Shown here: in pieces, positions 3,615-43,347 of the stretch
Numbering within the stretch: position 1 is the stretch's first letter
Layout: every line of letters begins with the position of its first letter
From: an uncultured virus (IMG/VR IMGVR_UViG_3300021400_005359)
Lineage: Duplodnaviria; Heunggongvirae; Uroviricota; Caudoviricetes
IMG/VR virus record: IMGVR_UViG_3300021400_005359
Direction: 5' to 3' (one strand)
Length of the DNA stretch: 64,000 nt
Program-made: the position numbers and the translations under genes
Notes under the pieces: generated by a model
The model's database searches: none
Seen by the model: the letters and a program-made list of their open reading frames with translations, nothing else
Told to the model about the DNA's origin: nothing

Positions 3615-3640
3615 AAAATTTTTCCTTTCTAAATTTATTT

Positions 3641-4078: not shown

Positions 4079-4224
4079 AAATATTACCTCCTTTAGTGTG
4101 ATAACAATAAATGTTTAAATTTATCTCTCTTATATTACAAAACTAGACTCAAAAAAATTTTAAAAAAAGGCACTATAAAAGAGGAGTAGCTTCTAAAAGC
4201 GACTCCTCTTTTTGTATTTTTAAT

Positions 4225-4671: not shown

Positions 4672-4752
4672 AAATAACTCCTTTTTTATTTTTTAATATT
4701 TTTTATTTATTAAATTATACTTTAAATGTGTATTTGTTATTCTAATAAATAA

Positions 4753-5232: not shown

Positions 5233-5247
5233 ATCTCTTATCCCTCC

Positions 5248-5778: not shown

Positions 5779-5892
5779 AATAATATACCTCGATTAATTA
5801 TTTTTTATATTAAATTATATTAAAAAGAAAAACCCTTAATAATAAAAACATTTTTAAACATAAAAAAATAGGAGTAAACACTCCTATTTTTA

Positions 5893-6834: not shown

Positions 6835-6845
6835 AAAAACCTCCC

Positions 6846-7859
6846 TTATTTCTTCCTATCTTGTGATTCAAGCGATTGCTTAGGTTTCGTATATTTCTTC
6901 TCCAAAGGAGCACCAATAACCTTATTAATAAACACAATAATACCTAAAATAGCAAGAGTACATATAGTAAGAACTACTTGCCCTAGTAGTTGATGGAACA
7001 TAAAATCTGTATATCCATCCATAAACACAACACCAAATCCTACAAATAAAGGATAAGCAAGAACCATCATATAACTATCACGAACAGGTTCAGAAATCTG
7101 TTCCTTAAGAAACATTTTTAACTTTCTATTTTCTTCGTATTGCTGATAAGCTTGTCCTAAAAGTTTTTTACGAACCTCATCAGTACCAAGTAAATAAGCA
7201 ATTTTATAGTAATCAGCTAAAAGACCCATATATTTATTAGATGTTCTAATAGCTAAATTGTCTAACGCTTCAGGAATAGAAAGACCTACACTAATTTCTG
7301 AAACAGTTTTTGAAAGTTCTGTATATAAAGGCTCTGTTCCGTAGAATTCTTTTGCAGTATTAATAATAGCTTTTTCAAAGTCTTCAGTATACTCATATCT
7401 TTTTATAACCATGTTCATAAATGGTCCAAGTTGAGTCTCTAACTTTTCTACTCTTTTTGTTTTTATCATTCCAAGAATTTGTTTAGGGAAATTATATCCA
7501 AGAACTGCAAATGCAATACCCATAAAAACATTTCCGATAAGGAAAGTAAAAATACTGAACATTATAAATGCTACACCAATAGAAATAAGGATAAAATCAC
7601 TATATCCCCAATCAAAACCTGCATTTTGACAAAGTATTTCTATTTCTTCTCTTTTTGTATATTCTATTTTCTTATCTGTGTAATCCTTAAATCTAAGTCT
7701 AAATGTGTTAGCTGAAAAATCTTTTGCTTGTTTTTTTCTAAGTTTAAATATTTCCGATTTTCCAGAAGACATAAATAGATTGGAATAAATAATTGTTCCA
7801 ATCATAAATAACATAAAAGGACCAACAGCTATTAAAGGAGCACTCAATACAATATCCAT
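6846..7859 (-). CDS. tadB: TadB-like pilus platform protein
   Basis: TM pair, EPLYTEL...EISVGLSIPEALDNLA, C-terminal TMs; follows cpaF. Confidence 0.8.
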   Translation of the reverse strand: MDIVLSAPLIAVGPFMLFMIGTIIYSNLFMSSGKSEIFKLRKKQAKDFSANTFRLRFKDYTDKKIEYTKREEIEILCQNAGFDWGYSDFILISIGVAFIMFSIFTFLIGNVFMGIAFAVLGYNFPKQILGMIKTKRVEKLETQLGPFMNMVIKRYEYTEDFEKAIINTAKEFYGTEPLYTELSKTVSEISVGLSIPEALDNLAIRTSNKYMGLLADYYKIAYLLGTDEVRKKLLGQAYQQYEENRKLKMFLKEQISEPVRDSYMMVLAYPLFVGFGVVFMDGYTDFMFHQLLGQVVLTICTLAILGIIVFINKVIGAPLEKKYTKPKQSLESQDRKK

Positions 7860-7967
7860 CCTTTCACAAAGATTAATCTCTCTTATAATATAACAATGAT
7901 ATTTCTTTAATTTAAAAATTAAGTTTTAACGACAAAAAAGGAAGCTTATAAAAGCTTCCTTTTATAT

Positions 7968-9635
7968 TTACTCAGAATCTTTATTATCTCCCTCTTCATT
8001 ATTTCTTTCATTTATAGAAACAAATTTCTGAAGCTTTTGAGTTCTTCTTTGCATATCTTCAATCTCTTTAACTTTATTAAGCTCACTTACAAGAGCAGCA
8101 TTCACAGAACTTGAAGTATTTTCTTCTCTCTTTTTCATTCTTGCAAGCTCTCTAGCTTTCATCTTCTCTTCGTGTTCCTTATTATATCTTTCTTGTCTTT
8201 CTGCTTTTTCTCTATAATAAGTTTCATTAAGTTCATCAATAGCCTTCTTCTCAACTTCAGGGTCATCAGTTTCCATCCATTTTATAACTCTTGACTTAGG
8301 AACACCTCTACGCATCAAGTTTCTACATTTTTCAGGAGCAATTCTCTTGTACCAAACCCAATCTTCTTTCATAAAGTCATAAAGCATAAGGTCAGTAAGT
8401 TTAGTACGCTTCTGTACATCATCGAACTCAACTTCTGTTATATAAGTAACTTTTCTTCCGATTCCTTCAATATTATCTTGAACAGCAATAAAGTCTACCG
8501 CTGAACCAATAATACGTTCTACAACGTCGATACCAAGAGCAGGCATCATCATAAGGTACTTAGTAACAAGACGGTTAATAGCGTTAATAGGTTTACCAGC
8601 ATGCATTGTAAAAATTGTACTGTGTCCAGTTTCCATACCTTCTACAGCAGCTTGAGCTTCCTCAGCACGAACTTCACCTACAACAATATACTTAGGCTTT
8701 AAACGAAGAGCTGTAATAATAAGTTTATAAAGAGGAATATCCGCTTTAGGGTCTTCAGCTCTACAGCTTACAAGTTCAAGTGTATGGTCATTCTTAGGGA
8801 AAAGTTCCTGTGTATCTTCACAAACAAGCATTCTCTTATTATTCAAAGTTACATAATGGTCAATAAGAGCACGAATAGTTGTTGTTTTACCTGTACCAGT
8901 AATTCCAGCATAAATAATATTTGATTCTCCGTCTATGGTAAGTCCAAAAAATTCAGAAATTTCTTCATTCAAAACTCCACCATATAAAAGGTCATCAAGC
9001 ATAATGTGGTCTTCTCTGTGTTTTCTTAATGTCATAGAATAATCTTTAGGACTAACAGCAGGGGAAGTAGCACATCCTCTATCTCCATAAAGCTCAAAGT
9101 CAACGATTTTACTATCACCGATATTAATTTCCTTACCAGCTTTTCTTATGAAACGCTCAACTACATCTTTATAATGTTCCTTACTTCTAAATGTTTTTTC
9201 ATACTTAACATTCTTTCCAGCTCTTTCAACATAAATTTTGTTCCAAGCAAGGCAATAAATATCATCTACATCTGGGTCATTAAAAGCATCTTCAAGAACA
9301 GAATAACCTGAATATTCACTAACCATATCATTAATGAAATCATTAAGTTTTTCTCCACTATAGCCTCTAACACTTATATTTTTTTGTAAAATACAGTCCG
9401 AAACAAACTTTCTACATCTTTCTTTCTCAGCTCTTAAATCTGCTTTAGTTAAGTTTCTATTAGAAGAAAGAGCTCCATCATTAACTGTCATTTCAAGGAT
9501 TTTTCTTTCAGAAAGGTAATCTACAACTATTTTCTCAGCTTCATCGTAATCAATAACTTCGTTTGCTTTAGAAGTATTATTATTAGATATTTTTACAATA
9601 TCTTTTCTATATGAAACAAATGATTTGTCTGTCAT
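7968..9635 (-). CDS. cpaF: CpaF/TadA pilus assembly ATPase
   Basis: Walker A GITGTGKTT, EDTQEL Asp box, ALRLKPKYIVVGEVR, TGH..TMHA His box. Confidence 0.92.
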   Translation of the reverse strand: MTDKSFVSYRKDIVKISNNNTSKANEVIDYDEAEKIVVDYLSERKILEMTVNDGALSSNRNLTKADLRAEKERCRKFVSDCILQKNISVRGYSGEKLNDFINDMVSEYSGYSVLEDAFNDPDVDDIYCLAWNKIYVERAGKNVKYEKTFRSKEHYKDVVERFIRKAGKEINIGDSKIVDFELYGDRGCATSPAVSPKDYSMTLRKHREDHIMLDDLLYGGVLNEEISEFFGLTIDGESNIIYAGITGTGKTTTIRALIDHYVTLNNKRMLVCEDTQELFPKNDHTLELVSCRAEDPKADIPLYKLIITALRLKPKYIVVGEVRAEEAQAAVEGMETGHSTIFTMHAGKPINAINRLVTKYLMMMPALGIDVVERIIGSAVDFIAVQDNIEGIGRKVTYITEVEFDDVQKRTKLTDLMLYDFMKEDWVWYKRIAPEKCRNLMRRGVPKSRVIKWMETDDPEVEKKAIDELNETYYREKAERQERYNKEHEEKMKARELARMKKREENTSSSVNAALVSELNKVKEIEDMQRRTQKLQKFVSINERNNEEGDNKDSE

Positions 9636-11335
9636 TATTCTCCTCCATTTTCATCTACAGAAGAACTTTCTTCTATTTGTTCAGTATCTTCTGTATCTTC
9701 TTCTTTAGTTTCTTCAATTTGTTCTTTATTATTAGAAGAAGTTATTCCAAAATTGTTTAAAGTATCACCAACAGCCTTTTTAACTTTATCAAAAATCTCA
9801 TTTACTGATTGGCTACTCTTACTATTTTTCAAACCTTCCTTAATTTCATCAACATCTTCATCTTCAAGACCTATTGTATCTTTAAGGAATTTAACAACTT
9901 TATTTTCTTTACCAGTAAGCTGTTTCTCTTCTTGTATAATTTCTTCTTTTCTATTAAAGATAGCTTCCATCTTTTGAGCAAGTCTATCAAAATTCTTTAT
10001 AGGCCAAATATCATTAGCTGTTTTCATAAGCTCATATCTGGTCTCTACAAAGTTTTTATTATTTACCATAATCACGAATTCTTCTTTAAAATCAACTTCA
10101 AACATATTTTTTCTAGGAATATCAGGAATTTTAGAAAGGAATTTGTAACCTAAGCTTGAACTAATTTCATCAGCAGTTATAGAAACTTCTTCATCAGGAA
10201 GTTTTCTATTTAAAACATACTTAAGCTTATTTTCACTAACATAATCTGTTATATGTCCAATCTGTCTCTTATGAGCATAGAAAGCTTTAAAATCCATATC
10301 TAAAATCATATAAATATCTCTTGACATTGAGAAAAGAGGGAAAACCTTAGAATATTCCCAGTCTGAGTTCATATCAACTAAGATAATATCATAATCTTCA
10401 ACAATAGATTCAATTATAAATACAATATCATTACTTGCAAATTCATAAGAGTCATTCTCATAGAATTCTCTCTCAGGAGCTCCAAGAACAAAGATATTTG
10501 AATATTTAGAAGTCTGTACAAACATCTTTCTAATTTTATCAATAACTTCAAGTTTTAAACTCTTGTTATCATTTAAAGTTCCATCCTTCTTAATGATTTT
10601 CTGAGCCTCAATAGAAGCCATTATAATATTTTTTTCTTTATTCTGAGTCTTAAATACATAAGAAGCTCCAAAACCTGCAAGGTCTAAGTCAATAATAGCT
10701 ATTCTTGGCTTACTTCCAGAAGGTGTACTAATACCAGTCTGTGAAAGAGCAACTGCAATATTAGATAAAATGAAAGTCTTTCCTACGCCACCCTTAGTTG
10801 ATACAAAAGTAGATAGATTTCTATAAACATTAGATTCTATCTTCATATCATTAATGCTATGAGTTACTGTAATATTAGGATGTCTCTTTCCGTGAATACT
10901 TTCTACGTTTTTAGCCTGCAAAAAGTCTACGTTTTCAATAGACCTAGGATTTTTTAAAACGAATTTAATAAGTTCTACTTCAATGGTATTTTCAGTAATA
11001 ATGTCATAAATACCAAGAGAAATAAGCATATTTAAACTTTTTAAACTAATTGTATCACCAAAATCAACTTTACCATAAAAATAGACAATTCTTATAGAAG
11101 GATTAGCTATTTTTATAGCTGCTAAAATTTCGTGGAGTGAAGATTTTCCACCAATATTATCAGATACAACTAAAATATCTGGAACCAAAGAAGCACAAGC
11201 TTCTTGAAGTTCTTCTCTATAATCAACTTTAGCTATAACATTAAATTCTTCAAAAGAAGCTATAACTGTATCCATATATTCTTGCCCTGAAGCAACTAAT
11301 ATGGTAGGTTTTTTTCTTTCTTCAACGTATTCCAT
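9635..11335 (-). CDS. TadZ/CpaE-like protein (pseudo-receiver plus MinD/ParA ATPase)
   Basis: Receiver-like N-terminus (PDILVVSD), STKGGVGKT, IIDLD, YDIILVD; translationally coupled to cpaF. Confidence 0.75.
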   Translation of the reverse strand: MEYVEERKKPTILVASGQEYMDTVIASFEEFNVIAKVDYREELQEACASLVPDILVVSDNIGGKSSLHEILAAIKIANPSIRIVYFYGKVDFGDTISLKSLNMLISLGIYDIITENTIEVELIKFVLKNPRSIENVDFLQAKNVESIHGKRHPNITVTHSINDMKIESNVYRNLSTFVSTKGGVGKTFILSNIAVALSQTGISTPSGSKPRIAIIDLDLAGFGASYVFKTQNKEKNIIMASIEAQKIIKKDGTLNDNKSLKLEVIDKIRKMFVQTSKYSNIFVLGAPEREFYENDSYEFASNDIVFIIESIVEDYDIILVDMNSDWEYSKVFPLFSMSRDIYMILDMDFKAFYAHKRQIGHITDYVSENKLKYVLNRKLPDEEVSITADEISSSLGYKFLSKIPDIPRKNMFEVDFKEEFVIMVNNKNFVETRYELMKTANDIWPIKNFDRLAQKMEAIFNRKEEIIQEEKQLTGKENKVVKFLKDTIGLEDEDVDEIKEGLKNSKSSQSVNEIFDKVKKAVGDTLNNFGITSSNNKEQIEETKEEDTEDTEQIEESSSVDENGGE

Positions 11336-11390
11336 AAAAATCTCCTTTAAAAAAATTTAGCTAGAGGGAAATTTCCCTCTAGCTAAGTAA

Positions 11391-12443
11391 TTATCTTACA
11401 TAATCAGTTCCGATAGAAGCTGAAACTTGAGTATCAGTTTCAGATTGATTATCGTTAGAGGAATTATTACTATCAGTTTCTGTTAAATTACCATCAGCAA
11501 TAACAGTAGACTTACTTTGTACCATTGCAGCTCCATCACCATCTTGAGTATTGTTATCTGTATCCTGAATTGTTGAAATAATCTGTAAGGAACCTGTCTC
11601 TGCATTAGCATTTCCAGCAAATACCTTACCATAGTTACCCATAACATAACCAAGAGACTCGTGAGTTTCAGATTGTTCAAATCTCTTAACAATTGTAATA
11701 CTTCCTTTAGACTGTCTAGTTTTAATCTCTTCTGCTTGTTCAGGAGTTACAATAATAAGTAATGTACTGATTCCGCCTGAATCTGGCTTAACAGACTCAT
11801 CAGAAGTATCCATTCCAGAGATTTGTTCTCCAGAAAATCTATCAGCTCTCTTAGTAGTTTTAAAACCTTCACTTGTGAGAGTTTTGTAAATAGTAACTTC
11901 CTGCATAAATATCTTTGAATATGTGAATCCAGAAGAAGAAGAGGAAGAACCACCTCCTGATTGTTCTCCGTCAGCTGAAACAGGATTAACAATAGTAGCC
12001 TGACCTTCAGCAGTAAACATCAAATCAATTTTATCACCTTCAGCAAAATCTGCACCAGCATCTGTGCCTACAGAACAAGGGATAGAAATAACTCTGGCAT
12101 TAGTCAAATCAAGATTTGCAAAATCGGTAGATGTAACATTAGCTTCACCTACTTGTTTGTAATAAACATACGTGTCAGGATAAACCTTACTTGTAGTATA
12201 GCTACCAATTAGGCTCTTTGAATTGGAAGCAAGAATCATATTAGCTGTATAATCTTGTGAAGAAACTTTACCAACTATTACATCAGATTCTTTTATCTGA
12301 ACATTTTCTCCAATTTCTCTAGCCCACATATAAACTTTAATGGGTTTCATAACCGTATCGGTATAAGATTTGTATGACATAACGAAGATTATAACTGCTA
12401 GAATTTGAATAGCAAGTATAATCATTTTCTTTTTATTTCTCAA
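11391..12443 (-). CDS. cpaB: CpaB/RcpC pilus assembly protein (SAF domain)
   Basis: N-terminal TM, SAF-like AREIGENVQIKESD, GDKIDL, LIIVTPEQAEEI. Confidence 0.8.
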   Translation of the reverse strand: MRNKKKMIILAIQILAVIIFVMSYKSYTDTVMKPIKVYMWAREIGENVQIKESDVIVGKVSSQDYTANMILASNSKSLIGSYTTSKVYPDTYVYYKQVGEANVTSTDFANLDLTNARVISIPCSVGTDAGADFAEGDKIDLMFTAEGQATIVNPVSADGEQSGGGSSSSSSGFTYSKIFMQEVTIYKTLTSEGFKTTKRADRFSGEQISGMDTSDESVKPDSGGISTLLIIVTPEQAEEIKTRQSKGSITIVKRFEQSETHESLGYVMGNYGKVFAGNANAETGSLQIISTIQDTDNNTQDGDGAAMVQSKSTVIADGNLTETDSNNSSNDNQSETDTQVSASIGTDYVR

Positions 12444-12567
12444 GATGAGCCTCCAATCTACAAAAAAAATATCGTCTAATATATCTAGAAATATAATACA
12501 CCCTAAAAAAATTAAATAAAATATTTTTGTGTTTTAAAGAATGTAAGTATGTGCTTAATAAATTATT

Positions 12568-14319
12568 TTATGTCTCGTCTTCTATGTTAGAAGCTATTAA
12601 AGCAATACTATCTACAAATTCTCTATTCCTACAAACTCTCATAATTGGTTGACATTTAAAAGAAAGTTCATTTATTTCTTCTGTATTTTCAGGAATTGTA
12701 AAAGTTCTATTTGTTTCGTACCATTCTCTTATGCTTTTTTCATTAAGAGAAAGTCTTCTAGAATACTTATTTATTATATAACTATTTTTCTCATTAATAG
12801 ATTTATTTCCATTTGTTTTAATAGTAAAATCAAGTCCACGTCTTGTTAAACTATCTAAGAATTGCTTACAATATCCGATAGACGATACATCTTGAGAAAC
12901 AAGTAAATAATTCTTATTAGAGAAAGTAAGAGCTTTTTCAATAATACTTAAACTAGTATTACTCTTCATATCTACGATAATATAGTTGTAGTTTAACTGT
13001 TGCATATAGTAAAGAAGTAATTGTGCAAAAGAGTTACTACTTATAGGAGTCTTATCTCTTCTTAAAATATAATCTTCAGAAAAGAAAAGCATATCTAAAG
13101 TCTTTGGATATTTTTTAAAAGCAGATAAAAGTTCTTCAGAGTTACATCCATTTACTAAATTTGCAAGAGTTGTAATAGAGTTATTAACATCTTGTAATGA
13201 ATTTGTTTCATATCCAAGAATAGCCTTATCTATTCCATCTTCATAATTAGTTGATTCATATACCCCAAGCCAATAAGCAATCATAGGATTAGTGTCATTA
13301 TATTCAATATATAAAACCTTATTCTTTCTAAGTGCAAGTTCCATTGCAACGCAATAAGCTGTAAGTGTTGTTCCAATTCCGTTTTTAGCACTATAAAAAG
13401 TAACTATTTTATCTTTACCTATATAAATACTTCCGCTATTTCTTTTAGGTCTAGTAACTCCACCAAACTTATTATTAGAAGAAGCATTTGACCCTGTATT
13501 AGAAAAAGGATTAGAAGAAGGAGTCTTTTTCTGAGTTTGTTTGTTTTGTGGAGAATTATGGCTATTTGAACTATCCACAGGTTTAACTAAAGGATTATCT
13601 TTAGTAAAATTACTTTTAGCAGCTCCACCTTTTTCCAATAAAGATTCAATTAAAGAAGGGATAACTGGAGTCTTCTTTCCACCACCTGTTTGATTAGTGG
13701 GAGCTACAATTATATCAGAACTAGGGGCTTGTTTAATTTCTTTTTCTTTATGTTCAACAGGAGTTTCTTCAACAATTTTTTCAACAGTAGTTGTAAGTTC
13801 TGTCTTTTTCTTTTCTTCTGGAGTATCAAAATCTTCTATTAAATCTCCATCTTTTGGAAGATATTTAGATACCTTATCAAAAGTTGTAGGATTGTCAATC
13901 ATATCTGCAACTTCATCAATAACAAGTTTGGAACCAGTTAAAATATCATAAATATTAAAAGCAACTAAATTTCCTAAATTTTTATCTCCAACTTTTCTAT
14001 CACCTGCAATAAAAACAATTCTTAAAGCAGGAAACATTCTTTTTAAATTTTTAGCAAATGTAAAAATTTCTGGAGCTTCATCAGTTATTGACCCTGGAAG
14101 GATTTTCTTAAATCCATCAAGACCTTCTCTTAAAACAATAACATCTGGACCACTACTTTTTACAAGGTCTAAAATATTATCCTTATGAACTGCATATCCT
14201 ACAAATTCATAATTCTTTTTTTGTTCTCCATTTTTTTCTCTTTCTTTATCTCTATCATTGAGAATAGATTCCAAATATGTTTCAGCATCTCTTACACCAA
14301 TAGCAAATAAAATTCTCAT
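12568..14319 (-). CDS. Second TadZ/CpaE-like protein with a degenerate Walker A
   Basis: Receiver-like N-terminus (PDVIVLRE, IYDIL), low-complexity linker, SAKNGIGTT, YNYIIVD. Confidence 0.7.
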   Translation of the reverse strand: MRILFAIGVRDAETYLESILNDRDKEREKNGEQKKNYEFVGYAVHKDNILDLVKSSGPDVIVLREGLDGFKKILPGSITDEAPEIFTFAKNLKRMFPALRIVFIAGDRKVGDKNLGNLVAFNIYDILTGSKLVIDEVADMIDNPTTFDKVSKYLPKDGDLIEDFDTPEEKKKTELTTTVEKIVEETPVEHKEKEIKQAPSSDIIVAPTNQTGGGKKTPVIPSLIESLLEKGGAAKSNFTKDNPLVKPVDSSNSHNSPQNKQTQKKTPSSNPFSNTGSNASSNNKFGGVTRPKRNSGSIYIGKDKIVTFYSAKNGIGTTLTAYCVAMELALRKNKVLYIEYNDTNPMIAYWLGVYESTNYEDGIDKAILGYETNSLQDVNNSITTLANLVNGCNSEELLSAFKKYPKTLDMLFFSEDYILRRDKTPISSNSFAQLLLYYMQQLNYNYIIVDMKSNTSLSIIEKALTFSNKNYLLVSQDVSSIGYCKQFLDSLTRRGLDFTIKTNGNKSINEKNSYIINKYSRRLSLNEKSIREWYETNRTFTIPENTEEINELSFKCQPIMRVCRNREFVDSIALIASNIEDET

Positions 14320-14423: not shown

Positions 14424-15983
14424 TTAAAGCTCTCTTTCAATATTTACCATATTTTCTTTTTCTTTTAAAGCATTTTTCTGTTCATAGTAACTATCTACTT
14501 TATCAACAACTCTTAAGCAATAGTTTTCTTTGTCTATCTTTTTCTTTTTAGATATTTCAACGTTAGAATTAGCTTCTAATACTTTCTTTTCACAAAAAGC
14601 TAAAAGCTCTTCTTTATTATTTATAGAAGGATTATCAATAACTTCTTTTAAAAGAATTTTCTGCATTTCTTTAATTGCTGGACCACTGCATTTATAAATC
14701 TTATTATTTTTTTCTCTTTCAACATTCATAATATCATATCCATTTAAAGCAAGGTCTTTAAAAGTATGTGGTCCAGAAAGAATTTTATCTAACTCTTCTT
14801 TCATCTTATCAGTAACTTCAAATCTAGAACTAATAGATTCAAGACTTGTATTATGTCCAGCAAGGTCTAACTTTTTAATTTCAAAAAGCCTATTATAAAA
14901 TGTTTCATCAAATTCTGGGTTTTCAATAATAAAATCTCTTAAATGCTTATGAATCCTATCTTCTGAAGTATTGTTAAAAGCATCGTGATGCCTAACTAAG
15001 TCTGAAATATCTCTTACTTCATCAGCAGAAAATTTCAAATCTTGTAAAATATTTCTAGAAATATAATAAGAAGCTTCTTGATGGTCTATAAAATGGTCAT
15101 AGCCATCTTTACCAACAGTTTTCATAGAAGGCTTTCCAATATCGTGAAAAAGTATAGCAGTTCTAGTAATTAAATCTTTAGAGGAATCTTCTAAGACTTT
15201 CATTGTATGATTACCAACATCCCATAAATGATACTTAGAATTTTGAGGACATTCAAAAATCTCATTTAATTCAGGAGAAATATGTTTCAAAAGTCCAGTT
15301 TCATAAAACTTTTTAACAAATGTTGGATTATCAGTCATTAAAGTTTTGCAAAGCTCGTCTCTAATTCTCTCTTTAGATACTTTTGTAATATCACTAGAAT
15401 GATTTTTAATAGCTTCCCATAGAGAATCTTCTATTTCATATCCATATTTAGCAGAAAAACGAATAGCTCTCATCATTCTTAAAGCATCTTCTTCTATTCT
15501 TTTATTAGCATCACCAACAGCTCTAATCTTTTTATTTTCTAAATCACTAAGACCATTAAACTTATCTATAAATCCATCTCTTGGACTCCAAGCAAAAGCA
15601 TTTATAGTTAAATCTCTTCTTTCAAGGTCTTTTGTAATATCAGTTTCAAATTTTACACTATCAGGATGTCTTCCATCAGAATAATCTCCATCACTTCTGT
15701 AAGTAGTAATCTCAAAACCTTCTTTACCAACCATAACAGTAACAGTTCCGTGTTGAAGCCCAGTAGGAACTACATTATATCCAAGACCTTCAAAAAGATT
15801 AATAACTTCTTCAGGAGTAGCATTAGTAGTAACATCTTCATCTTTTGGAGTTATTCCAAGAAGAGCATCTCTAACACATCCACCAACAGCAAATGATTCA
15901 AAACCATTATCATTTAAAGTTTTAAGCATTAAAAGAGCGTTGTCAGATAAAGAATTTTGCATAATTTTATCAATGTTGTTCAT
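14424..15983 (-). CDS. cca: CCA tRNA nucleotidyltransferase with HD domain
   Basis: VGGCVRD, DEDVTT, DLERRDLTINA, EDALRMMRAIRF, HDIGKP. Confidence 0.9.
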   Translation of the reverse strand: MNNIDKIMQNSLSDNALLMLKTLNDNGFESFAVGGCVRDALLGITPKDEDVTTNATPEEVINLFEGLGYNVVPTGLQHGTVTVMVGKEGFEITTYRSDGDYSDGRHPDSVKFETDITKDLERRDLTINAFAWSPRDGFIDKFNGLSDLENKKIRAVGDANKRIEEDALRMMRAIRFSAKYGYEIEDSLWEAIKNHSSDITKVSKERIRDELCKTLMTDNPTFVKKFYETGLLKHISPELNEIFECPQNSKYHLWDVGNHTMKVLEDSSKDLITRTAILFHDIGKPSMKTVGKDGYDHFIDHQEASYYISRNILQDLKFSADEVRDISDLVRHHDAFNNTSEDRIHKHLRDFIIENPEFDETFYNRLFEIKKLDLAGHNTSLESISSRFEVTDKMKEELDKILSGPHTFKDLALNGYDIMNVEREKNNKIYKCSGPAIKEMQKILLKEVIDNPSINNKEELLAFCEKKVLEANSNVEISKKKKIDKENYCLRVVDKVDSYYEQKNALKEKENMVNIEREL

Positions 15984-18720: not shown

Positions 18721-20670
18721 TTAATTATCAGAAATAAGTTTTGAATTTTCCATAATAAATTTTCTTCTTGGAGGAACTTCGCTTCCCATAAGAAGAGAAA
18801 CTGTATCAGAAGCTTCTTTTACATCATCTATAGTAATTCTCTTTAAAATTCTAGTCTCAGGATTCATTGTTGTTTCCCAAAGTTGTTCAGCACTCATTTC
18901 TCCAAGTCCCTTAAATCTTTGAATAGAGAAATTCTTTTTTCCTTTTAGAAATTTATCAAGTTCTGGTTTAGTTTGTATATACTGAGATTTCTTATTGTAA
19001 GTAACTTTATATAATGGAGGACAAGAACAGTATACGTGACCTTCTTTGATAAGTTCTGGCATAAATCTATAAAAGAAAGTAAGCCATAAAGTTGCAATAT
19101 GTGCTCCATCAACGTCCGCATCACTCATAATGATAATTTTATCGTATTTAAGTTTTGTAATATCAAAATCATCACCAATTCCACATCCAATTGCAGTAAT
19201 AAAAGGAGCAATTTTTTCATTTGCATAAACACTTTCAACTGGACATTTTTCAGTATTTAAAATTTTTCCAAACACAGGAAGAATTGATTGAGTCTTTCTA
19301 TCTCTAGCAGTTTTAGCACTTCCAGCAGCACTATCACCTTCTACCAAAAAGATTTCAGTAGAAATTCCTTTACTTGGATTATTTGATAAACTACAACTAG
19401 CAAGTTTACTACTAATAGAATTTTGATTATTCTTTTTCATAAAAGCATCTCTAGCTTTTGTCTCATTTTTTCTAAGACCAGCCATTTTAAGAGATTGTTC
19501 AATTATTTTTTCTACAGTAGTTACGTTTTTATCAAAATAAATTGGAAGCCATTCAGTCATTATAGCTTCAACAGCAAGTTTAGCATCACTACTTCCAAGC
19601 TTAGATTTTGTTTGTCCTTCAAACTGAGGGTCGTGATGTTTCAAAGAAATTACTGCAGTAAGCCCATTTCTTAAATCCTTACCATCAATAGCTCCATCTT
19701 TTGCCTTTAAAAGTCCAAGGTCTTTAGCATACTTATTAACTATTTTTGTTAAAGCACTCTTAAAACCTGTTTCGTGAGTACCACCCTCTGGAGTAATAAC
19801 GTTGTTACAGAATGAATAAATGGTTTCTCCAAAATCATTTGTAAGCTGAAAAGCACACTCAAAATATTGTCCATTATTTTCACCTTCAATATAAACAATA
19901 TCATCGTGAATGGTTTCTTTATCTTTATTAAGGTCTGCTACAAATCCAATAATACCTCTGTCATCGTGAAAAATTTCAACTTCAGGTTCATCTTTTGTAT
20001 AATCTATAAACTTTAAAGTCAAATTTTTATTTAAATATGCAGTTTCTTTAAGTCTTTTTCTTATAGTATCTGATTTAAAATGAACTGTTTCAAAAATAGT
20101 GTTATCAGGAATGAAAGTAATTTTTGTTCCGTTCTTACTAGTATCTCCAATAGGAAGAAGTTCTCCTCCTTTAAGTTTAGTAATAGCAGCTCCACCATTT
20201 TGATATTCATCTTTATAGTGTTTGCCATCTTTAAATACTTCAACGCAAACATATTTAGATAAAGCATTTACTACAGATATACCAACACCGTGAAGACCTC
20301 CAGATACCTTATAAGCACCATCATCAAATTTACCACCAGAATGAAGTACAGTTAAAATAATTCTTTCTGTACAAATTCCATTTGGATATTTGCTTTTTGG
20401 ATAATCTCTTGTATTGGAATGTAAATCTATTGGCATTCCTCGTCCATTATCTTCAACAGAAACTGAACCATCCTTATTGAGAGAAACATTTATTTCATCA
20501 CAAAAACCTGCAAGACTTTCATCTACTGCATTATCTATAACTTCCCATATCAAATGATGAAGACCTCTTCTATCAGTAGAACCAATATACATTCCAGGTC
20601 TTTTTCTTACAGGGTCTAAACCTTCAAGAACTTGGATTTGTTCTCCAGTGTAATTATCTTTTTTTGGCAT
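18721..20670 (-). CDS. gyrB: Type IIA topoisomerase subunit B (GyrB/ParE)
   Basis: VRKRPGMYIG, EVIDNAVDE, GGLHGVG, VEGDSAAGS, DADVDG, RFKGLGEM. Confidence 0.95.
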   Translation of the reverse strand: MPKKDNYTGEQIQVLEGLDPVRKRPGMYIGSTDRRGLHHLIWEVIDNAVDESLAGFCDEINVSLNKDGSVSVEDNGRGMPIDLHSNTRDYPKSKYPNGICTERIILTVLHSGGKFDDGAYKVSGGLHGVGISVVNALSKYVCVEVFKDGKHYKDEYQNGGAAITKLKGGELLPIGDTSKNGTKITFIPDNTIFETVHFKSDTIRKRLKETAYLNKNLTLKFIDYTKDEPEVEIFHDDRGIIGFVADLNKDKETIHDDIVYIEGENNGQYFECAFQLTNDFGETIYSFCNNVITPEGGTHETGFKSALTKIVNKYAKDLGLLKAKDGAIDGKDLRNGLTAVISLKHHDPQFEGQTKSKLGSSDAKLAVEAIMTEWLPIYFDKNVTTVEKIIEQSLKMAGLRKNETKARDAFMKKNNQNSISSKLASCSLSNNPSKGISTEIFLVEGDSAAGSAKTARDRKTQSILPVFGKILNTEKCPVESVYANEKIAPFITAIGCGIGDDFDITKLKYDKIIIMSDADVDGAHIATLWLTFFYRFMPELIKEGHVYCSCPPLYKVTYNKKSQYIQTKPELDKFLKGKKNFSIQRFKGLGEMSAEQLWETTMNPETRILKRITIDDVKEASDTVSLLMGSEVPPRRKFIMENSKLISDN

Positions 20671-24582: not shown

Positions 24583-26829
24583 ATGTCCAAAAGAAAAAAA
24601 GAAGTTGAAGAAATTATTGAAAAGATAATAGAAGCTGACTTCAAAGAAACAATGGAACAAAGCTATATAGATTATTCTATAGAAGTTATTACAGAACGTG
24701 CTTTGCCAGATATTAGAGATGGATTAAAACCTGTTCAAAGAAAAAGTATATATACTTTTGAAGAACTTGGAATAACAAAAGATAAGCCATATAAAAAATC
24801 AGCTCGTCTTGTTGGTGAAACTATGGGTAAATATCATCCACACGGAGATTCATCAATCTATGAAGCAATAGTAAGGATGACACAGCCTTTTATGCTTAAC
24901 TATCCATTAATTGATGGTCACGGAAACTGGGGTTCTATAGATGGAGATTCAGCTGCAGCTATGAGATACTCAGAATGTAGATTAGAAAAAATATCAAATG
25001 AACTAATTGATGGTTTAAAAAGCGGAACAGTAAAATTCGTTCCAAACTTTGATGAAGAAGAAACAGAACCTTTAGTTTTACCAGCAAGATTTCCAAATCT
25101 TTTAGTAAATGGAACCGAAGGTATTGCTGTTGGATTGGTTTCTTCCATACCAACTCACAATTTAAGAGATACTATAAATATGATTATTCATTATATGAAA
25201 AAATCATCAAAAAAAGGTGTAAATACATCAGAACTTTTAGACATACTAAAAGGTCCTGATTTCCCAACAGGTGGAATTATTACAAATGTAGAAGAACTCC
25301 TTGATATATACAAGACAGGAGAAGGAAAAATTTCAATAAGAGCAAAACTTGTTGAAGAAAATATAAACGGAAAACCTTGCCTTATTGTTACTGAAATTCC
25401 ATACACTTATTCTGGAAGAAAAGCATCTTTAGTAGATAAAATTTCTAAAGTTATTTTATCAAAGAAAATTGATGAACTTGTAGAGATTAAAGATGAATCT
25501 TCAAAAGAAGGAATTAGAATAGTTATTGAATGTAAAAAAGGAAGTGACCTTGAAAAAGTTGCTAATAAGCTATACAAATTTACTCCTCTTCAAGATTCAA
25601 TGGTTGTAAGATTTAATGGAACAATTGGAAAAGAACTTATTCCTTTCAATTTAATAGACTATTGTAAGTATTTTACAGACTTCCAAGAAGAAATTTATAC
25701 TAAAGAATATATAACTAAAAAATCAAAACTTGACAAAAAGAAAGAAATTTATGAAGGTCTTGTCAAATCAATAGATTTTATAGACACTATAATTGATTTA
25801 ATTAGACACGCAGAAAAAGTTGAATTTGCTAAAAGATGTTTAATGACAGGAAATATAAACAATATTCACTTTGCTTTAAAGAAAAATGAACAAATTGCAA
25901 AAAAATTCAGCTTTACAGAACTTCAAGCTGAAGCAATACTAGAAACTACTCTTAGAAAATTAAATACACTTGAAGTAGAAACACTTATAAATACTTTAAA
26001 AGAAATTGAAAATGAAATTTCTATTTGCAATAAAATTCTTTCATCTAAGGAAGAATTACACAAAGTAATAATCAATAGACTTACAAAAATTGCAAAAGAA
26101 TATGGAAGAGATAGACTTACAGAACTTAAAAATGCAACAATTATCGAATATGAAGAAGAAGTTAAAGTCTACGAAACAAATGTTGTGTACGATAAGTACG
26201 GATATATAAAGATGTTTGATGAAAAAACAATTGGAAAAGTTGATGACGTAACTTTTGAAAATTGTAAGCTAAACAAAAAGACAGATTCAACAGATATATT
26301 ATGGGCATTCTCAAACGAAGGAAATATGTATCAAATAAAACTTTCAAGTCTTCCATTTAATAAACAAAATGATAGAGGAACATTACTTGAAGTAAAAGTT
26401 GGAAAGAAAATTGATGGAGACATCATATATGTAACAACTCAAAATAGTGAAGGTAGGTTAATATTTGTAACTGAAAAAGGATTTATAAAAATAGTTAATA
26501 AGAAAGAATTTATAAGCACAAGAACAATAACAAATTCAACAAAGTTAAGTTCTGATGATAAAATCCTAAAGATAATTGAAATAAATGGTGAAGACTCAAT
26601 AATTGTAACAACAGATACAAATTACTTAAACTTCTCAATATCTGAAATATCGGAATTAAAGAAAACTTCAGTTGGAGTTGTTTCAATAAAAGTACCAGAA
26701 AATGTAAAGATAAAAGACGTTGTAATTTATAAAAAAGAAACAACAGAAGAAATTATATTAAACAATAAACCTTTCAAAGTAGAAGAATTAAAAGTACAAA
26801 AAAGAGGTAGTAAAGGTACTAAATTTTAA
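24583..26829 (+). CDS. gyrA: Type IIA topoisomerase subunit A (GyrA/ParC; no canonical GyrA-box at the CTD start)
   Basis: [21 protein letters not shown], catalytic [15 protein letters not shown], beta-pinwheel repeats. Confidence 0.93.
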
Positions 26830-26870
26830 AAAGAAGAGCATTAGCTCTTCTTTTTTTATAAAAAACACAC

Positions 26871-26903
26871 AAAAAGGGACTCCCTACCAAGGAGCCCCTT
26901 TTT
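26871..26903 (-). terminator. Intrinsic terminator of the large ncRNA
   Basis: Minus strand GGGGCTCC-TTGGTAG-GGAGTCCC-TTTTT; the stem has a G-U pair on the minus strand but an A-C mismatch on the plus strand. Confidence 0.8.
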
Positions 26904-26904
26904 A

Positions 26905-27820
26905 ATAATTAGGCTGAGATTATACCTTCATCCGATAGAACTTTATTTTCCGTATGTTTTAGAAAATTATCCACCTTAAACCCTTTCGGCATCTAAAGTA
27001 TTCTATCATAGCCGCCTTTTTGAATGGGAAGCTTTACCCATCTGCTATATAGTTACTCAACATTTCATATTCCGTCTGCCTTGCGAGCAATAAAGGTTTG
27101 CGGACCACCGTGCAATTCCGTGTTAAAAACTTTAAGTCTTGCGAGACTTATTGTTCTCTTCATTAAGATTACTCTTTGAAGAATTAGGCTATTTTCACTA
27201 TATAGGGACACAGACTTTCGCTGTGTTGTATAAAATAAAAATTTTTTTATCCTTATTATATAAAAAATTTTTATAATATGGAAAACCAATCCAATTTGGA
27301 AAACCAATCCATAAAATAACTAATAATCTCTACAGAAGATGTGCTGTGTCAGTGCCTTCACTTCCTTTTGGGATGCGAAATAGCACACACCTTCAATACC
27401 TTTCCCCTGTTTAGGTACTTAGTTCTTCATAAGAAAAGTGTTTCTCCACCTTCTTAATCTATGACTTGTGCCTTCGAGTAACAAGCTCTCAGACTGCAAA
27501 TCTCCCGATTCGCTTTCGTTTTTTAATTAGTTTGCGTGTCCTATTAGTCTTGCGGACTAAAATTGCATTTCAGCGAGTACGCCCTGATACAACTTATTAG
27601 ACCTAATGTCTAAAACTATTTCCAAGGAGGATTTACCTTCACACCGCCCTGAAAAGCATCCTTTTGAGATGCAAGCCTGTCGGTTTTGCTTGAATTGACT
27701 GCTTTCGCAGCGGTATGTTGTAGAAAATACATACCTTTACTACTCTCACAAATAGCTATCAGCGTCAAGCCGCTACATATCTCTGTCTAAAAGAAGCAAG
27801 CTCCTTTTTTCAAGAGGTGT
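26905..27820 (-). ncRNA. Giant structured ncRNA, GOLLD-like (GOLLD/ROOL class)
   Basis: ~1.1 kb gene-free gap, GC-richer than its flanks; many hairpins with GAAA/GCAA loops on the minus strand; long-range pairings; 3' end GUUGAGUA...GGUAUAAUCUCAGCCU resembling, from memory, the GOLLD 3' domain; own promoter and terminator. Confidence 0.75.
27279..27311. repeat. Tandem direct repeat TGGAAAACCAATCCA x2 (18-bp period) in the AT-rich linker of the large RNA
   Basis: Copies at 27279-27293 and 27297-27311. Confidence 0.85.
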
Positions 27821-27826
27821 ATTATA

Positions 27827-27854
27827 ATTATATCATTAATTTTTTTTATTACAA
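27827..27854 (-). promoter_or_regulatory. Sigma-A-type promoter of the large ncRNA
   Basis: Minus strand TTGTAA (27854-27849), 16-nt spacer, TATAAT (27832-27827) with extended -10 TG. Confidence 0.7.
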
Positions 27855-27955
27855 TAGTTTTTGTCGTATATTTTTCAAAAAAATGTTTTATATATATTTT
27901 TTACTAATAATAACTAAAAAAAATAGACCCTTTGTATAAAGGGTCTATAAAATAG

Positions 27956-28900
27956 TTAACAGGTAACTTTCGGATATTCAACAAACTTACAAAGAAGATT
28001 ATCATTATCTTTGAAATATAGATAACTTGGAAGAATTTCCTTATCATATAAAGAACATAAAACAAAAGTTGTATTTATAGCACTAACACCACAAATATCA
28101 ATTCTCTTTTCATTCGTCTTAATGTCTGTGATATGCTTTAAAAATCCCTTTGAAATTCCATTTATCTTTGTAAGATAAAACTCTTCTTCATCAAAAACAA
28201 TTCCAGATGTAAGTGAAAGAGTTTTTATGTCTGCCAAAATCTTTTCTGCATTATCTGTTTTATAAAAGATAACTTCATCAGAATTAAAGCAAACAATCTT
28301 TGAAATATCCTCATAGTTAAGAACAATATCTACAACTTTTCTCGTAATAAATTTTTCGATTTTATAAATCTGTTTATTACAAGTCTTTCCAAAATTAGTA
28401 GACCTAATTCTCTTATTGTCAAAATACTTATAATCTGTAAGCATTTTAACGTAAGATGGATAATCAACAGCATTTCTTACAATTTCAGGATTAAAAAGCT
28501 TAAGAGCCTGAAAAGAAGCAGATTTCAAATCAACACTAATTAAAGTCTTGTTAAGATTTGATTCGTTATAAATAGCTGCAGATGAAATATTGTCCTGAGA
28601 AATTTTATATTCATCCAAAGAATTCCCTTTAAGTCCAAACTTATCCTGTCTTTCTTCCTGGTCAGAAATAAGACTGTTTACAAAGTTGTTCCTTTGAACA
28701 TAATACTCATCCATAGTCTTAAAATTATCAGAAACATAATCTTTAAACTCATTATACTTTTGAATAAGACCAGGTCTGTGAGCATCATAAAGAGAAAGTC
28801 TTTCATCAAAAAACTCAGTAGAACCAATACCAACATCCATCTTTATTCCAAAGTCTTTAATAAATCTCTCATTTAATCTAAAAATATCTGTTTTATTCAT
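27956..28900 (-). CDS. Hypothetical protein with polymerase-palm-like motifs
   Basis: ISVDLKSASF (motif A-like), KRIRSTNFG (motif B-like), FNSDEVIF (motif C-like) in the right order; product call is inference. Confidence 0.5.
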   Translation of the reverse strand: MNKTDIFRLNERFIKDFGIKMDVGIGSTEFFDERLSLYDAHRPGLIQKYNEFKDYVSDNFKTMDEYYVQRNNFVNSLISDQEERQDKFGLKGNSLDEYKISQDNISSAAIYNESNLNKTLISVDLKSASFQALKLFNPEIVRNAVDYPSYVKMLTDYKYFDNKRIRSTNFGKTCNKQIYKIEKFITRKVVDIVLNYEDISKIVCFNSDEVIFYKTDNAEKILADIKTLSLTSGIVFDEEEFYLTKINGISKGFLKHITDIKTNEKRIDICGVSAINTTFVLCSLYDKEILPSYLYFKDNDNLLCKFVEYPKVTC

Positions 28901-29297
28901 TTGCTTCCTCCTTTAAATACTTCGAAAATTGACTATTCATATCAATAGATATATCAAAAACAACATTTCCAAGATAATTTTCAAAATCAAAAACTTCGTC
29001 AATATCATCTGATGAACAAAGGATTATTTTAGAATCTTTAAAATACTCCGAAACACCAGAACCTCTTTCAAGTCTTTTTAAAATTGAGATACCAAGGTCT
29101 TTCTTTATCTCTCTTGAATCATCGTAAATAGGGAAATTATTATCAAGAACAACAAGTGAGAATTCATTATCCTTCAAAGACTTTACCATTGAGCCCCTTG
29201 TTCTTACTTTCTCTATATCTAAATAACCAAAAGATTTAAGAATGTCTTCAATACAGTCTGCTTTGATATTATCGTCATCAACAATTAAAGCATTCAT
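28893..29297 (-). CDS. Stand-alone response-regulator receiver domain
   Basis: LIVDDD, LVVLDNNFP, IILCSS; overlaps the start of the next gene. Confidence 0.8.
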   Translation of the reverse strand: MNALIVDDDNIKADCIEDILKSFGYLDIEKVRTRGSMVKSLKDNEFSLVVLDNNFPIYDDSREIKKDLGISILKRLERGSGVSEYFKDSKIILCSSDDIDEVFDFENYLGNVVFDISIDMNSQFSKYLKEEANE

Positions 29298-29384
29298 ATT
29301 ATTCCTCCTATATATAAATATATAAATATTATATTACAAAAAATAAAAAAAACAAAAAAGGAGAGAAAATTCTCTCCTTTTTTA

Positions 29385-30068
29385 TCACTTCAAAACTCCA
29401 AGTCCAATCATTTCAGAAAGCTTAAGAAGGAAAGCAATTTCTTCATCGCTATCCGTATAAGCAATTCTATCCTGAATTGAATTCTCAAGAGCTTCCTTTT
29501 CCTCTCTGGAAATAACCAAGGAATCATTTGGAACTTTTTTCATATAGCTTGCATCTTCTGGAGCAATAAAAGGAATCTTTTCAGGATGTCTCTTAGGTCT
29601 AACTCCATCTTCAGTAATCTTTTCAACCCAAAATACAAAATTTGTAATATCTTCAGGTACAAGCTTATATTCTCCAGTTAAATAAGAAGAATCAAGAGTA
29701 TATAAAGAAAAGAAAACTTCTCTTCTTAGATGGTCCTGAGAAACAACCATTTCAGAAAACATATATTCCAAAATATGCATTGCTTTTTCATTGTCACACT
29801 CAGCCTGACTCATAATGTGAGGAATAAAATCAAGCCACCTTACTTTGGTAAAAGGGCTTTTCTTAAATTTCTCTGTCTTGGAAATGTACCACTGAGTCGA
29901 ACGAGCATAAGCTGTTAAGTAATCAGCAAATCCCTGATAATTAAACTTTTTCAAGGGAACTGTCTCCAGATAATTCTTACCTGTAATATTCTTATAATTT
30001 TCAAGCAAATTATAGACGATTATAGGGTCTGACAAATCCTTATGACAAATAACTGAAAATCTAGACAT
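29385..30068 (-). CDS. Hypothetical protein
   Basis: AGGAGG RBS; terminator downstream. Confidence 0.7.
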   Translation of the reverse strand: MSRFSVICHKDLSDPIIVYNLLENYKNITGKNYLETVPLKKFNYQGFADYLTAYARSTQWYISKTEKFKKSPFTKVRWLDFIPHIMSQAECDNEKAMHILEYMFSEMVVSQDHLRREVFFSLYTLDSSYLTGEYKLVPEDITNFVFWVEKITEDGVRPKRHPEKIPFIAPEDASYMKKVPNDSLVISREEKEALENSIQDRIAYTDSDEEIAFLLKLSEMIGLGVLK

Positions 30069-30211
30069 TTTATGTTTCCTCCTACAAAAAAATTATCTCC
30101 TATATTATAGTTGTTTTTGATATTTTTTATTAAACTTTTTAAAAAATAAAATAATTGTTTTTTAGTATAAATATGCTAAACTATAAGAAGATTAATAAAA
30201 AGGAGCTTTTT

Positions 30212-42414: not shown

Positions 42415-43347
42415 TTGAATAAAGCAGAAATCCTTAACAAGATTTCAGAAAAAATGTATTCACAATACAAAACTGAAATCGAAGATACTTATGTATCAAA
42501 GGAGGACTTTTTGAAGAGTTTGGAGGAACTCTACGACATCGTAGTGGATAGATATGATGAAGAAGTAGACGAAATGCCTCTTGATGTTTTTGTGGAGAAA
42601 TCTCTTGAAGAAGACCTTTTATCAGATATAGGTAAGCTTGACCTTGATGAAACAATCGACACATCAGACCTCGATGAGTCTGAACAGCATACCTATATTA
42701 GTTATACTGAAAAGTATAACAACATTGAAAGAATTATTAGTAAAGAAAAAGGCTCACTAACAGATGAGCAAAAAGACATCTTAGCTGCGAAAAATATTCC
42801 ATTAATTCATTCAATCGTTAAGAAATTTTCAAACACAGGTATTGAGTATTCTGAACTTTTAAGTACAGGTTATGTAGGATATGCAAAAGCCTTAGATACT
42901 TATCAAAAAGGAAAGAATGTAAAATTTTCCACATATGCTTACAGATGTATAAAGAATGAAATCTTGTATTTCTTAAGAAGAGAAAAAAGACACAAAGATA
43001 ATGACGTTTCTCTCTTTAAACCTTTGTCAACTGACAAAAACGGAAACGTTATGACAGTAGAATCTACTGTATCTGAAACAAGTATGGGAAAAAGAAGTCT
43101 TGAAGAAGACATTGAAATGAATGAAACAGTAAAAATCCTTCTTGAGATTATTGATACTCATTTGACAAAAAATGAAGCATACATAATCAAGAACAGATAT
43201 GGATTAAATGGAACAAAGCCTAAAACACAAAAGGAAATTGCTGACGAAATTGATATGAGTCAAGCTAATGTTTCAAAGCTTGAAAAAGGAATTAATGATA
43301 AAATTAAGAAAATAATGGGCAGCAAATATAAAATTAAGAATATTTAA
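42415..43347 (+). CDS. Sigma-70 family factor, sporulation (SigE/SigK)-like, with an acidic N-terminal extension
   Basis: NIPLIHSIVKKF, KFSTYAYRCIKNEILYFLR, RYGL...TQKEIA....SQANVSKLEK. Confidence 0.88.
   Translation: MNKAEILNKISEKMYSQYKTEIEDTYVSKEDFLKSLEELYDIVVDRYDEEVDEMPLDVFVEKSLEEDLLSDIGKLDLDETIDTSDLDESEQHTYISYTEKYNNIERIISKEKGSLTDEQKDILAAKNIPLIHSIVKKFSNTGIEYSELLSTGYVGYAKALDTYQKGKNVKFSTYAYRCIKNEILYFLRREKRHKDNDVSLFKPLSTDKNGNVMTVESTVSETSMGKRSLEEDIEMNETVKILLEIIDTHLTKNEAYIIKNRYGLNGTKPKTQKEIADEIDMSQANVSKLEKGINDKIKKIMGSKYKIKNI

Follow-up and report, generated by a model that had tools for sequence, protein, structure and literature searches.

GOLLD is among the largest non-coding RNAs of bacteria, and the structures of its cages have been solved. 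Here we analyze a gene for such an RNA in a stretch of 64,000 nucleotides (nt), hereafter the window, which IMG/VR holds as an uncultured virus of the Caudoviricetes (IMGVR_UViG_3300021400_005359). We are highly confident that this is a stand-alone, full-length GOLLD gene carried by a large conjugative plasmid from a Firmicute of the gut. An original prediction, made from the sequence alone, had proposed a giant structured RNA at this place.

The env-38 GOLLD is described as a 14-mer cage (PDB 9MEE) with bridges B1-B10 (PMC12286853), and that of Streptococcus agalactiae as a 12-mer (PDB 9L0R), with a 10-mer for its 3' domain (PMC12990946). The window copy shares with both the 3' domain from P14 to P27, the P2-P5 junction, the linker site, a length of approximately 0.9 kilobases (kb), a mobile-element host, the loop motifs of B6, B7, B8 and B9, and the L22 pseudoknot. 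It differs from them in having its own promoter, an added 5' hairpin and a terminator, in lying among conjugative-plasmid genes, and in lacking a transfer RNA (tRNA) both in its linker and in the window. Furthermore, the hairpin after P5 has a UCAAAAG loop that is a near copy of L14, whereas env-38 has its B2 loop there.

The nearest relatives belong to a gut-phage clade (for example MT835469.1, which is L003, and L060-L125) that has the same type of 5' domain, is sister to the window copy in the 3' tree and has a similarly long, AU-rich, tRNA-free linker, while its identity to the window copy is at most 64%. A tRNA lies within 200 nt downstream in all 64 of the 67 clade loci that have enough flank to be counted and abuts upstream in 46 of these 64, a redundant set of approximately 11 lineages; none lies at the window copy. 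The clade comprises approximately 67 virus and metagenome loci (L060-L125, L248, L258, L273 and others), and its well-conserved 5' domain lies outside the Rfam model. Frequent neighbors of these loci are phrog_8308, PhoH and a Clp-type protease, and a tRNA usually lies on one or both sides. A terminase check was positive for one of five GOLLD phage records, so the assignment of these five to phages relies chiefly on their labels in IMG/VR and INPHARED and on PHROG neighbors.

GOLLD has reportedly also been found on mycobacterial megaplasmids by Morgado et al. in 2020. Published accounts place mycobacterial GOLLDs in tRNA clusters and describe them as horizontally moved and expressed outside lytic growth, as may also hold for the window copy, and as lying inside tRNA arrays and often holding a tRNA, neither of which is true of the window copy (PMC6582537, PMC9569102). 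Non-prophage copies have already been noted (PMC5737381), and tRNA arrays on mycobacterial megaplasmids are described in an article whose cited portion does not name GOLLD (PMC5966550). Another cage-forming ornate RNA on a Firmicutes megaplasmid is ROOL of Lactobacillus salivarius, which is reported to be abundant and patchily distributed, with no clear function upon deletion in the part of the study cited (PMC5643018), and which is listed as a hexamer (PMC12990946); it is an unrelated family, and the window RNA has no ROOL match. Literature searches that covered titles and the beginnings of abstracts, with few subscription papers among them, gave no description of a stand-alone plasmid GOLLD like this copy.

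Both halves of the RNA belong to GOLLD

The conserved 3' domain (26911..27395; this and all parts of the RNA below lie on the minus strand) matches the GOLLD family, Rfam RF02032, along the entire model (positions 1-416) with a score of 190.8 bits against a cut-off of 150 and an E-value (E) of 3.4e-52. No other Rfam model reaches its gathering score in the window. ROOL, OLE and introns, which the original prediction had named beside GOLLD as models to compare, did not match: ROOL, OLE, group I and group II introns and transfer-messenger RNA (tmRNA) were all absent at gathering score in the window and at E ≤5 in 25500-30200, where a permissive scan returned nothing further near any cut-off. The original prediction had wavered between a GOLLD-like RNA and a new class; the first holds at full model length, and the second falls with the existence of an Rfam match.

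Contigs from viruses, metagenomes and genomes were scanned by pattern, which gave at least 363 loci, and an iterated profile recognized GOLLD 3' domains in at least 203 of 364 sequences (the window included), 86 of them non-redundant. In a tree of these 86 domains, the window copy is sister to nine gut rows with support of 100/98 and sits on a long branch; its best identity to any other lineage, among the matches listed, is 64%. Because the root is a midpoint only, the tree does not determine the direction of transfer. A blastn search of the RNA against 72,556 plasmids gave no match. The Roseobacter phage DSS3P8 (KT870145.1, 8467-8900; L004) carries an unannotated GOLLD beside a permuted tmRNA and tRNAs.

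The Rfam model spans the 3' domain only. The 5' 400 nt of the RNA align to the 5' halves of gut-clade copies with E of 1e-16 to 1e-25, and this 5' domain is common to 70 of the 160 sequences that have an upstream stretch (the window and two plasmid relatives included), of which 12 are non-redundant. RNAalifold predicted 105 pairs from 18 chosen rows, 57 of which have changed on both sides, including G-U changes that are typical of RNA. In these pairs, 98.2% of cells are paired, a value that 0 of 500 shuffles equaled and that compares with at most 43% in slid controls. This covariation is strong but is not an independent test, since the sequences in the alignment are relatives of one another and also yielded the structure. 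The window copy forms 88 of the 102 consensus 5' pairs for which letters exist. With a covariance model built on the initial 154 positions, the P2-P5 junction was recovered ahead of the 3' domain at 25 of 74 further GOLLD loci, which we picked ourselves with near-duplicates omitted; the matches include Streptococcus and aquatic GOLLDs. Given the full-model Rfam match, the 5' covariation and a junction common to other GOLLD loci, the feature is a GOLLD RNA in both halves.

The 5' domain contains a P2-P5-like four-way junction (27688..27770) in which P3 has a GUGA loop of the GNRA type and P5 a GAAA loop. The minus-strand hairpins named in the original prediction all lie where it had put them, and two of them belong to this junction: CUGC-GAAA-GCAG (27699-27710) is the P5-like helix and GGUAUG/CAUACC the P4-like helix. 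The middle of the domain (27464..27683), with closing helices at 27683-27673/27515-27505, holds a hairpin with the UCAAAAG loop (27672-27656), a hairpin with a UAAAUCC loop (27654-27620), a nested domain (27616-27518) that includes a CGCAA hairpin (27560-27544), and a helix at 27502-27464. The end of the domain (27396..27463) consists of a long hairpin followed by a purine loop with GGGGA (27409-27400) and fits the consensus register poorly. Over 14 nt, the hairpin segment 27672-27659 matches the apical hairpin of P14 (27376-27363) with 93% identity. The gut clade has conserved the UCAAAAG loop, perhaps as a second A-minor donor.

The cage bridges were placed by eye and by alignment columns against the published bridge table of env-38 (PMC12286853). 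P14 (27335..27394), which the original prediction had drawn as a GAAGGUGUG/CACAUCUUC stem, has a CAAAA loop (27372-27364) that corresponds to the A-minor donor of bridge B6. The variable linker that follows (27230..27334) has 105 nt, 17% guanine plus cytosine (GC), no tRNA and a fold that is not above chance (z -1.5), and its length is among the longest of the 86 homologues. A 15-nt direct repeat lies in this AU-rich linker (27311-27297 and 27293-27279), and each copy can form a hairpin of four pairs. Kissing bridge B7 (27136..27224) joins the AGC box, with its GC at 27221-27220, to the CGCAA loop of L20, with its GC at 27142-27141; the 5' strand of P15 is at 27205-27196. One B7 column pair is Watson-Crick in 72 of the 86 homologues, with four pair types, and the other is G-C in 70; 0 of 300 partner shuffles reach the observed pairing. 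The CACAG-CGAAAGU-CUGUG hairpin that had been proposed for this stretch forms in 1 of 86 sequences, the window copy alone, and it would bury the B7 box, which in the family is an unpaired AGC box kissing L20.

Each of the hairpins P21a and P21b (27078..27104) is capped by a CGCAA loop, which contains the self-complementary GC used in bridges B8 and B9. In the L22 pseudoknot (27024..27041), AUGGG (27041-27037) faces CCCAU (27028-27024); it has five pairs in the window copy and a mean of 3.9 pairs over 85 rows, compared with 2.7 when shuffled (0 of 500). The remainder of the domain (26911..27007) comprises P23 (27007-27001/26940-26934), P24 with a GAAA loop, a GUGGAUAA box (26974-26967) and the terminal P27 hairpin (26927-26911). 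P23 is the long-range GAUAGAA/UUCUAUC pairing of the original prediction and has at least five pairs in 84 of 86 homologues. A second long-range pairing, GUUGAG/CUCAGC, did not fare as well: five pairs form in just 7 of 86, the invariance of CUCAGC places it beyond a covariation test, and GUUGA is instead the 3' strand of P17 (48 of 86; 0 of 300 partner shuffles). The GNRA loops at P3 and P24 are of the B1 and B10 type, and the B6, B8 and B9 motifs are present, all of which refers to presence in the sequence only. A B4-like pairing of the UAAAUCC loop with the purine loop GGGGA is plausible, with one pair lost, and B3 and B5 of env-38 could not be mapped on the window copy.

Of the features tested for GOLLD membership, the 3' domain, a variable but structured 5' domain (P2-P13 in the family, where the two domains together span approximately 700-900 nt), the linker, the L20 kissing interaction and the L22 pseudoknot were found, and the covariation for which the original prediction had advised collecting homologues is there, in the 57 compensatory 5' pairs and in the B7 columns. 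Every defining GOLLD feature that was testable is present, and this copy departs from the family in its usual context only.

Gene ends, transcription and conservation

Counted on the minus strand from 27808 to the Rfam end at 26911, the RNA has 898 nt, or approximately 940 nt with the terminator. As the original prediction had observed, the region is GC-enriched and free of genes: the 898 nt have 37% GC (40% without the linker) compared with 28% for the window, and no long open reading frame (ORF) lies between the gyrA/parC-type gene (24583..26829, plus strand), which is convergent with the RNA gene, and the gene for a 314-residue protein (27956-28900, minus strand). Small ORFs of 50-80 codons across the RNA region appear to be spurious, since the homologues carry many insertions and deletions of non-triplet length. 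The fold of the RNA region has a z of -6.84 (20 shuffles), and its predicted folding energy is -245 kcal/mol on the minus strand compared with -202 kcal/mol on the plus strand.

The extended -10/-35 promoter and the strand-specific terminator of the original prediction were both recovered. The predicted sigma-A-type promoter (27821..27854, minus) has a -35 box TTGTAA (27854-27849), a 16-nt spacer and a TG-extended TATAAT (27832-27827), directly after which comes a second TATAAT box (27826-27821). An intrinsic terminator (26870..26904, minus; z -4.8) ends the gene, and RNA contigs extend to 26896-26898. Another intrinsic terminator (27923..27948, minus) belongs to the upstream gene for the 314-residue protein and parts that gene from the RNA gene. 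Downstream of the promoter lies a 5' hairpin (27789..27808) of eight pairs with a CUUG loop, which has no counterpart at the same place in eight phage-clade rows of the alignment; 27808 is its first paired base and the end of the RNA contigs. A promoter-like site within the linker (27284-27255, minus; 10 of 12 positions) could yield an RNA of the 3' domain only; we rejected it because no contig ends there and such matches are at chance level in AT-rich DNA.

Twenty-two sequencing runs were listed, of which 20 contain the stretch and 16 of these are RNA libraries; the RNA runs stem from one possible source study, five studies of 2017 (perhaps one campaign), a bovine study of 2022 and a sheep study of 2024. 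Four runs were compared with the window, namely the RNA runs X3, X5 and X12 and the DNA run X6. RNA-library contigs of three studies cover 26896-27808, in X3 without gap or difference and in X12 without a listed piece at 27252-27392. The contigs end at 27808 in all three RNA runs, with adapter there in X5, whereas the contig of the DNA run X6 runs past this position. Such an end is what trimming back to the base of a protective stem would leave, although it could also be a library effect of the hairpin. In X5, the depth over the RNA is 28-102, compared with 2.5-3.4 on three short exact contigs of flanking genes, and contigs of this kind cannot rank genes; X3 and X12 have no RNA contigs over the flanking genes, which we do not take as evidence of level. 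Together, these contigs hint at a discrete RNA of approximately 0.9 kb. Runs X12 and X6 also contain contigs approximately 87% identical to 26941-27094, which represent further variants within this GOLLD lineage from samples of the bovine gut.

The metagenome pattern scan contained two further copies of the same element (L116 and L123) and a sister element, L119, with the same gene order. The RNA of L119 is identical to that of the window in 380 of 385 nt (98.7%), compared with 75-78% for three neighboring genes. Its promoter boxes are unchanged letter for letter, and the terminator of the upstream gene is kept. The close variants L119 and X12 together have seven substitutions, four of which fall in consensus pairs and keep all pairing, and three of which are unpaired. 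Purifying selection on the RNA would be the simplest reading of these sequences; alternatively, the 98.7% identity could stem from a recent swap of the RNA gene between these elements. Searches of genome and viral contigs with the relaxase family and the 314-residue protein gave no further useful plasmid relatives with flanks.

The carrier element and its neighboring genes

Pfam was run on 56 window proteins, and window proteins were also scanned with PHROGs. The Pfam families include VirB4/TraG ATPase, PrgI, type IV secretion system (T4SS) pilin, Tad-type ATPase, CpaB and a replication-relaxation protein of the relaxase family, as well as gyrase-type A and B subunits, an SbcCD-like nuclease, a sigma factor, ClpX and a tRNA nucleotidyltransferase; genes of the NucS, PARG and SLOG families, PcfJ and PhoH are also present. 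The window proteins scanned with these two collections include no member of a capsid, portal or tail family, and two PHROG "terminase" matches fall on VirB4 and HerA-type ATPases. The VirB4 is 54-66% and the relaxase-family protein 28-34% identical to proteins of the same 11 plasmid records from Bacilli and Clostridia (127-722 kb), which are Firmicutes conjugative megaplasmids of the pSC2 / BTB_502p / pJFP838A type. Tad/Cpa genes occur both in the window and in relatives. By its gene content, the window looks like part of a Firmicutes conjugative megaplasmid, which agrees with the plasmid-like context that the original prediction had recognized.

Ten of the 11 related plasmids were searched further (L364-L373); a 510-kb P. 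polymyxa record, likely a duplicate of pSC2, was omitted. tRNAs are present in five of the five tested, with 2-54 each. A RaiA/HPF ribosome-hibernation gene is present in nine of the ten and adjoins the replication-relaxation gene in four, and in the tenth a gene annotated with an S30EA C-terminal domain lies beside the replication-relaxation gene. RaiA was absent from five GOLLD phage records and was not seen among the 56 window proteins.

In the minus-strand stretch 604-14319, a Tad/Flp pilus module comes immediately after the T4SS genes; the Tad module occurs in related plasmids too. The tRNA nucleotidyltransferase gene (14424-15983, minus) is of the CCA type, scores just below the NCBIfam cut-off and has an HD domain, with no tRNA in view. 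The gyrase/topoisomerase IV B (18721-20670, minus) and A (24583-26829, plus) genes are split and divergent, 4 kb apart. The sigma factor (42415-43347, plus) is nearest to the sporulation SigK/SigE models and scores below their cut-offs.

The 314-residue protein (27956..28900, minus), a neighbor outside the RNA unit, has no Pfam, PHROG or NCBIfam name. Its alignment-based model has a predicted local distance difference test (pLDDT) score of 91.6 and a predicted polymerase-palm-like fold, with no separate exonuclease domain at this size. The best fold match is a Klosneuvirus R3H-domain protein (template modeling score 0.80), and family B polymerases reach a Z of just approximately 7. Residues D124 and D208-E209 are kept in 99% of 135 homologues. 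The family has 1140 clusters at E ≤1e-3, mostly viral where the origin is known, and may be a large unnamed nucleotidyltransferase-like family. A weak sequence match in the PDB, 8URE, was dropped because it is a designed protein. We rejected this protein as a GOLLD partner: among 56 GOLLD loci of at least 5 kb its profile matches the window element and L119 alone, it occurs in none of five GOLLD phage genomes, and a terminator lies between the genes.

Proposed assembly, rival explanations and meaning

Both halves of the RNA are GOLLD and fold through covarying helices. Transcription by the host sigma-A polymerase probably begins at the extended -10 promoter and stops at the terminator, and an RNA of approximately 0.9 kb would persist with its 5' end at the foot of the hairpin at 27808. 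The 5' hairpin and the terminator would define and protect its ends, as tRNA processing can for phage copies that lie between tRNA genes. Judging from the family and the bridges that are kept, approximately 10-14 chains would then assemble into a protein-free hollow cage with the AU-rich linker inside. It is to these four steps taken jointly, in a stand-alone gene on a conjugative plasmid, that our high confidence applies.

Several observations weigh against this reading. The rows that covary in the 5' domain are related, approximately 11 lineages plus the window copy, and the consensus structure comes from the same alignment. The 5' pairs that the window copy lacks are concentrated at 27465-27390; it forms a similar hairpin there, but in a shifted register. 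The B2 daisy-chain loop of env-38 has no visible counterpart in the window copy and, in a comparison by eye, the middle 5' helices are ordered otherwise than in env-38; because of these two differences, the size of the cage is not predictable. Promoter-like sites occur at chance frequency in this DNA (26 found compared with 20.5 +/- 4.4 in shuffles), although the one used here is unchanged in L119, and 27808 lies 6-12 nt downstream of the start expected from the two TATAAT boxes. The RNA contigs carry neither strand nor level, the runs were chosen for holding the stretch, and X5 comes from the possible source sample of the window. As for the context, no tRNA was found in the 64-kb window, linker included, in keeping with the original prediction of no adjacent tRNA; tRNAs, raiA or phage genes could lie elsewhere on the replicon. 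Among other GOLLD loci, 31 of 77 have no tRNA within at least 1 kb on each side. Finally, GOLLD is absent from all ten of the related megaplasmids searched, both with the 3' search and with the 5' model (a control recovered three of three known copies), indicating that it is dispensable for this plasmid family; a weak 5'-model match in CP009417.1 (E 0.039) was rejected, being unsupported by either profile.

As to what a cage would do for the element, our guess is that it may be one of the element's aids to translation, to which host ribosomes or cargo the size of a tRNA would bind or by which they would be shielded, and that it would let the element keep translation capacity in slow growth or under defense. 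This guess is prompted by the tRNA link of the family, by a pull-down in which GOLLD bound ribosomes, as cited in PMC12286853, and by the tRNAs, RaiA and CCA enzyme of the plasmid family. It is tentative and somewhat more apt to be wrong than right; the linker contains no tRNA cargo.

The RNA could instead be a decoy in the conflict between phage and host, a sponge that soaks up a nuclease, an immune sensor or an RNA-binding protein. The family is enriched on phages and is reported to rise during lysis (PMC12286853), the particle would be very stable and multivalent, and the element has the NucS-, PARG- and SLOG-family genes; across the loci examined, however, no defense gene is linked to GOLLD, and we consider this role rather unlikely.

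Alternatively, the RNA may be a passenger, a genuine GOLLD that came from a phage and is still transcribed with no present benefit to the plasmid. Its absence from the ten related megaplasmids, nearest relatives on IMG/VR virus contigs and an adjoining gene from a mainly viral family would all fit, and recent recombination between the two elements could produce the identity to L119 as well. Against this stand the greater conservation of the RNA than of its neighbors, its conserved promoter, and a promoter, 5' hairpin and terminator of its own. Since the branch is long and lies outside the phage clade, the RNA was not recently captured from the phages of that clade. We regard a passenger as distinctly unlikely.

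Still less probable is that the window is part of a phage-plasmid or holds a prophage region, in which case the context would be an ordinary phage one. Only 64 kb are in view, the GOLLD relatives are phage-borne, and PcfJ, PhoH and tRNA nucleotidyltransferase also occur in large phages. However, the window has no virion family, its "terminase" matches are conjugation-type and HerA-type ATPases, its VirB4 leads to 11 plasmid records that also have the relaxase family, and this VirB4 was found in none of five GOLLD phages tested.

That the RNA merely resembles GOLLD and founds a new class of giant ornate RNAs is scarcely credible. The 64% ceiling on 3'-domain identity, the lack of a plasmid blastn match and a middle 5' domain unlike that of env-38 would favor it, but it is rejected because Rfam GOLLD matches over the full model, 40 bits above the cut-off; the sister relationship to gut-phage GOLLDs and the presence of its 5' junction in GOLLDs of Streptococcus and of aquatic origin also speak against it. 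A replication origin or a decayed intron, which the original prediction had named as alternatives and which gene-free, AT-rich parts beside a topoisomerase gene might suggest, has practically no chance of being correct, given that the region has neither an iteron array nor a DnaA box and matches no intron model at E ≤5, and given the RNA-type G-U covariation.

The window copy opens no new class. Its value is that of a natural experiment, since it is a GOLLD set apart from tRNA genes and, apparently, from the phage life cycle. Because it is separate from both, has defined ends and is conserved between diverged elements, explanations of GOLLD that require lysis or a tRNA cargo are disfavored. 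It also offers a ready stand-alone cassette for expression and cryo-electron microscopy, and the gut clade of approximately 70 loci with a covarying 5' domain extends the 3'-only Rfam model, although the published GOLLD alignment may already contain members of it.

A bolder idea, which we think improbable, is that ruminant-gut Firmicutes megaplasmids have domesticated a GOLLD lineage as a steadily made, RNA-only storage particle for ribosomes or tRNAs, an RNA counterpart of RaiA/HPF. Such a lineage would have been detached from tRNA arrays and phage lysis, would have gained a promoter and hairpins that protect its ends, and would be under stronger selection than the surrounding proteins. The place of RaiA/HPF beside the relaxase-family gene in four related plasmids is roughly that of GOLLD in the window element. 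If domestication were true, the function of GOLLD would need neither phage lysis nor an embedded tRNA.

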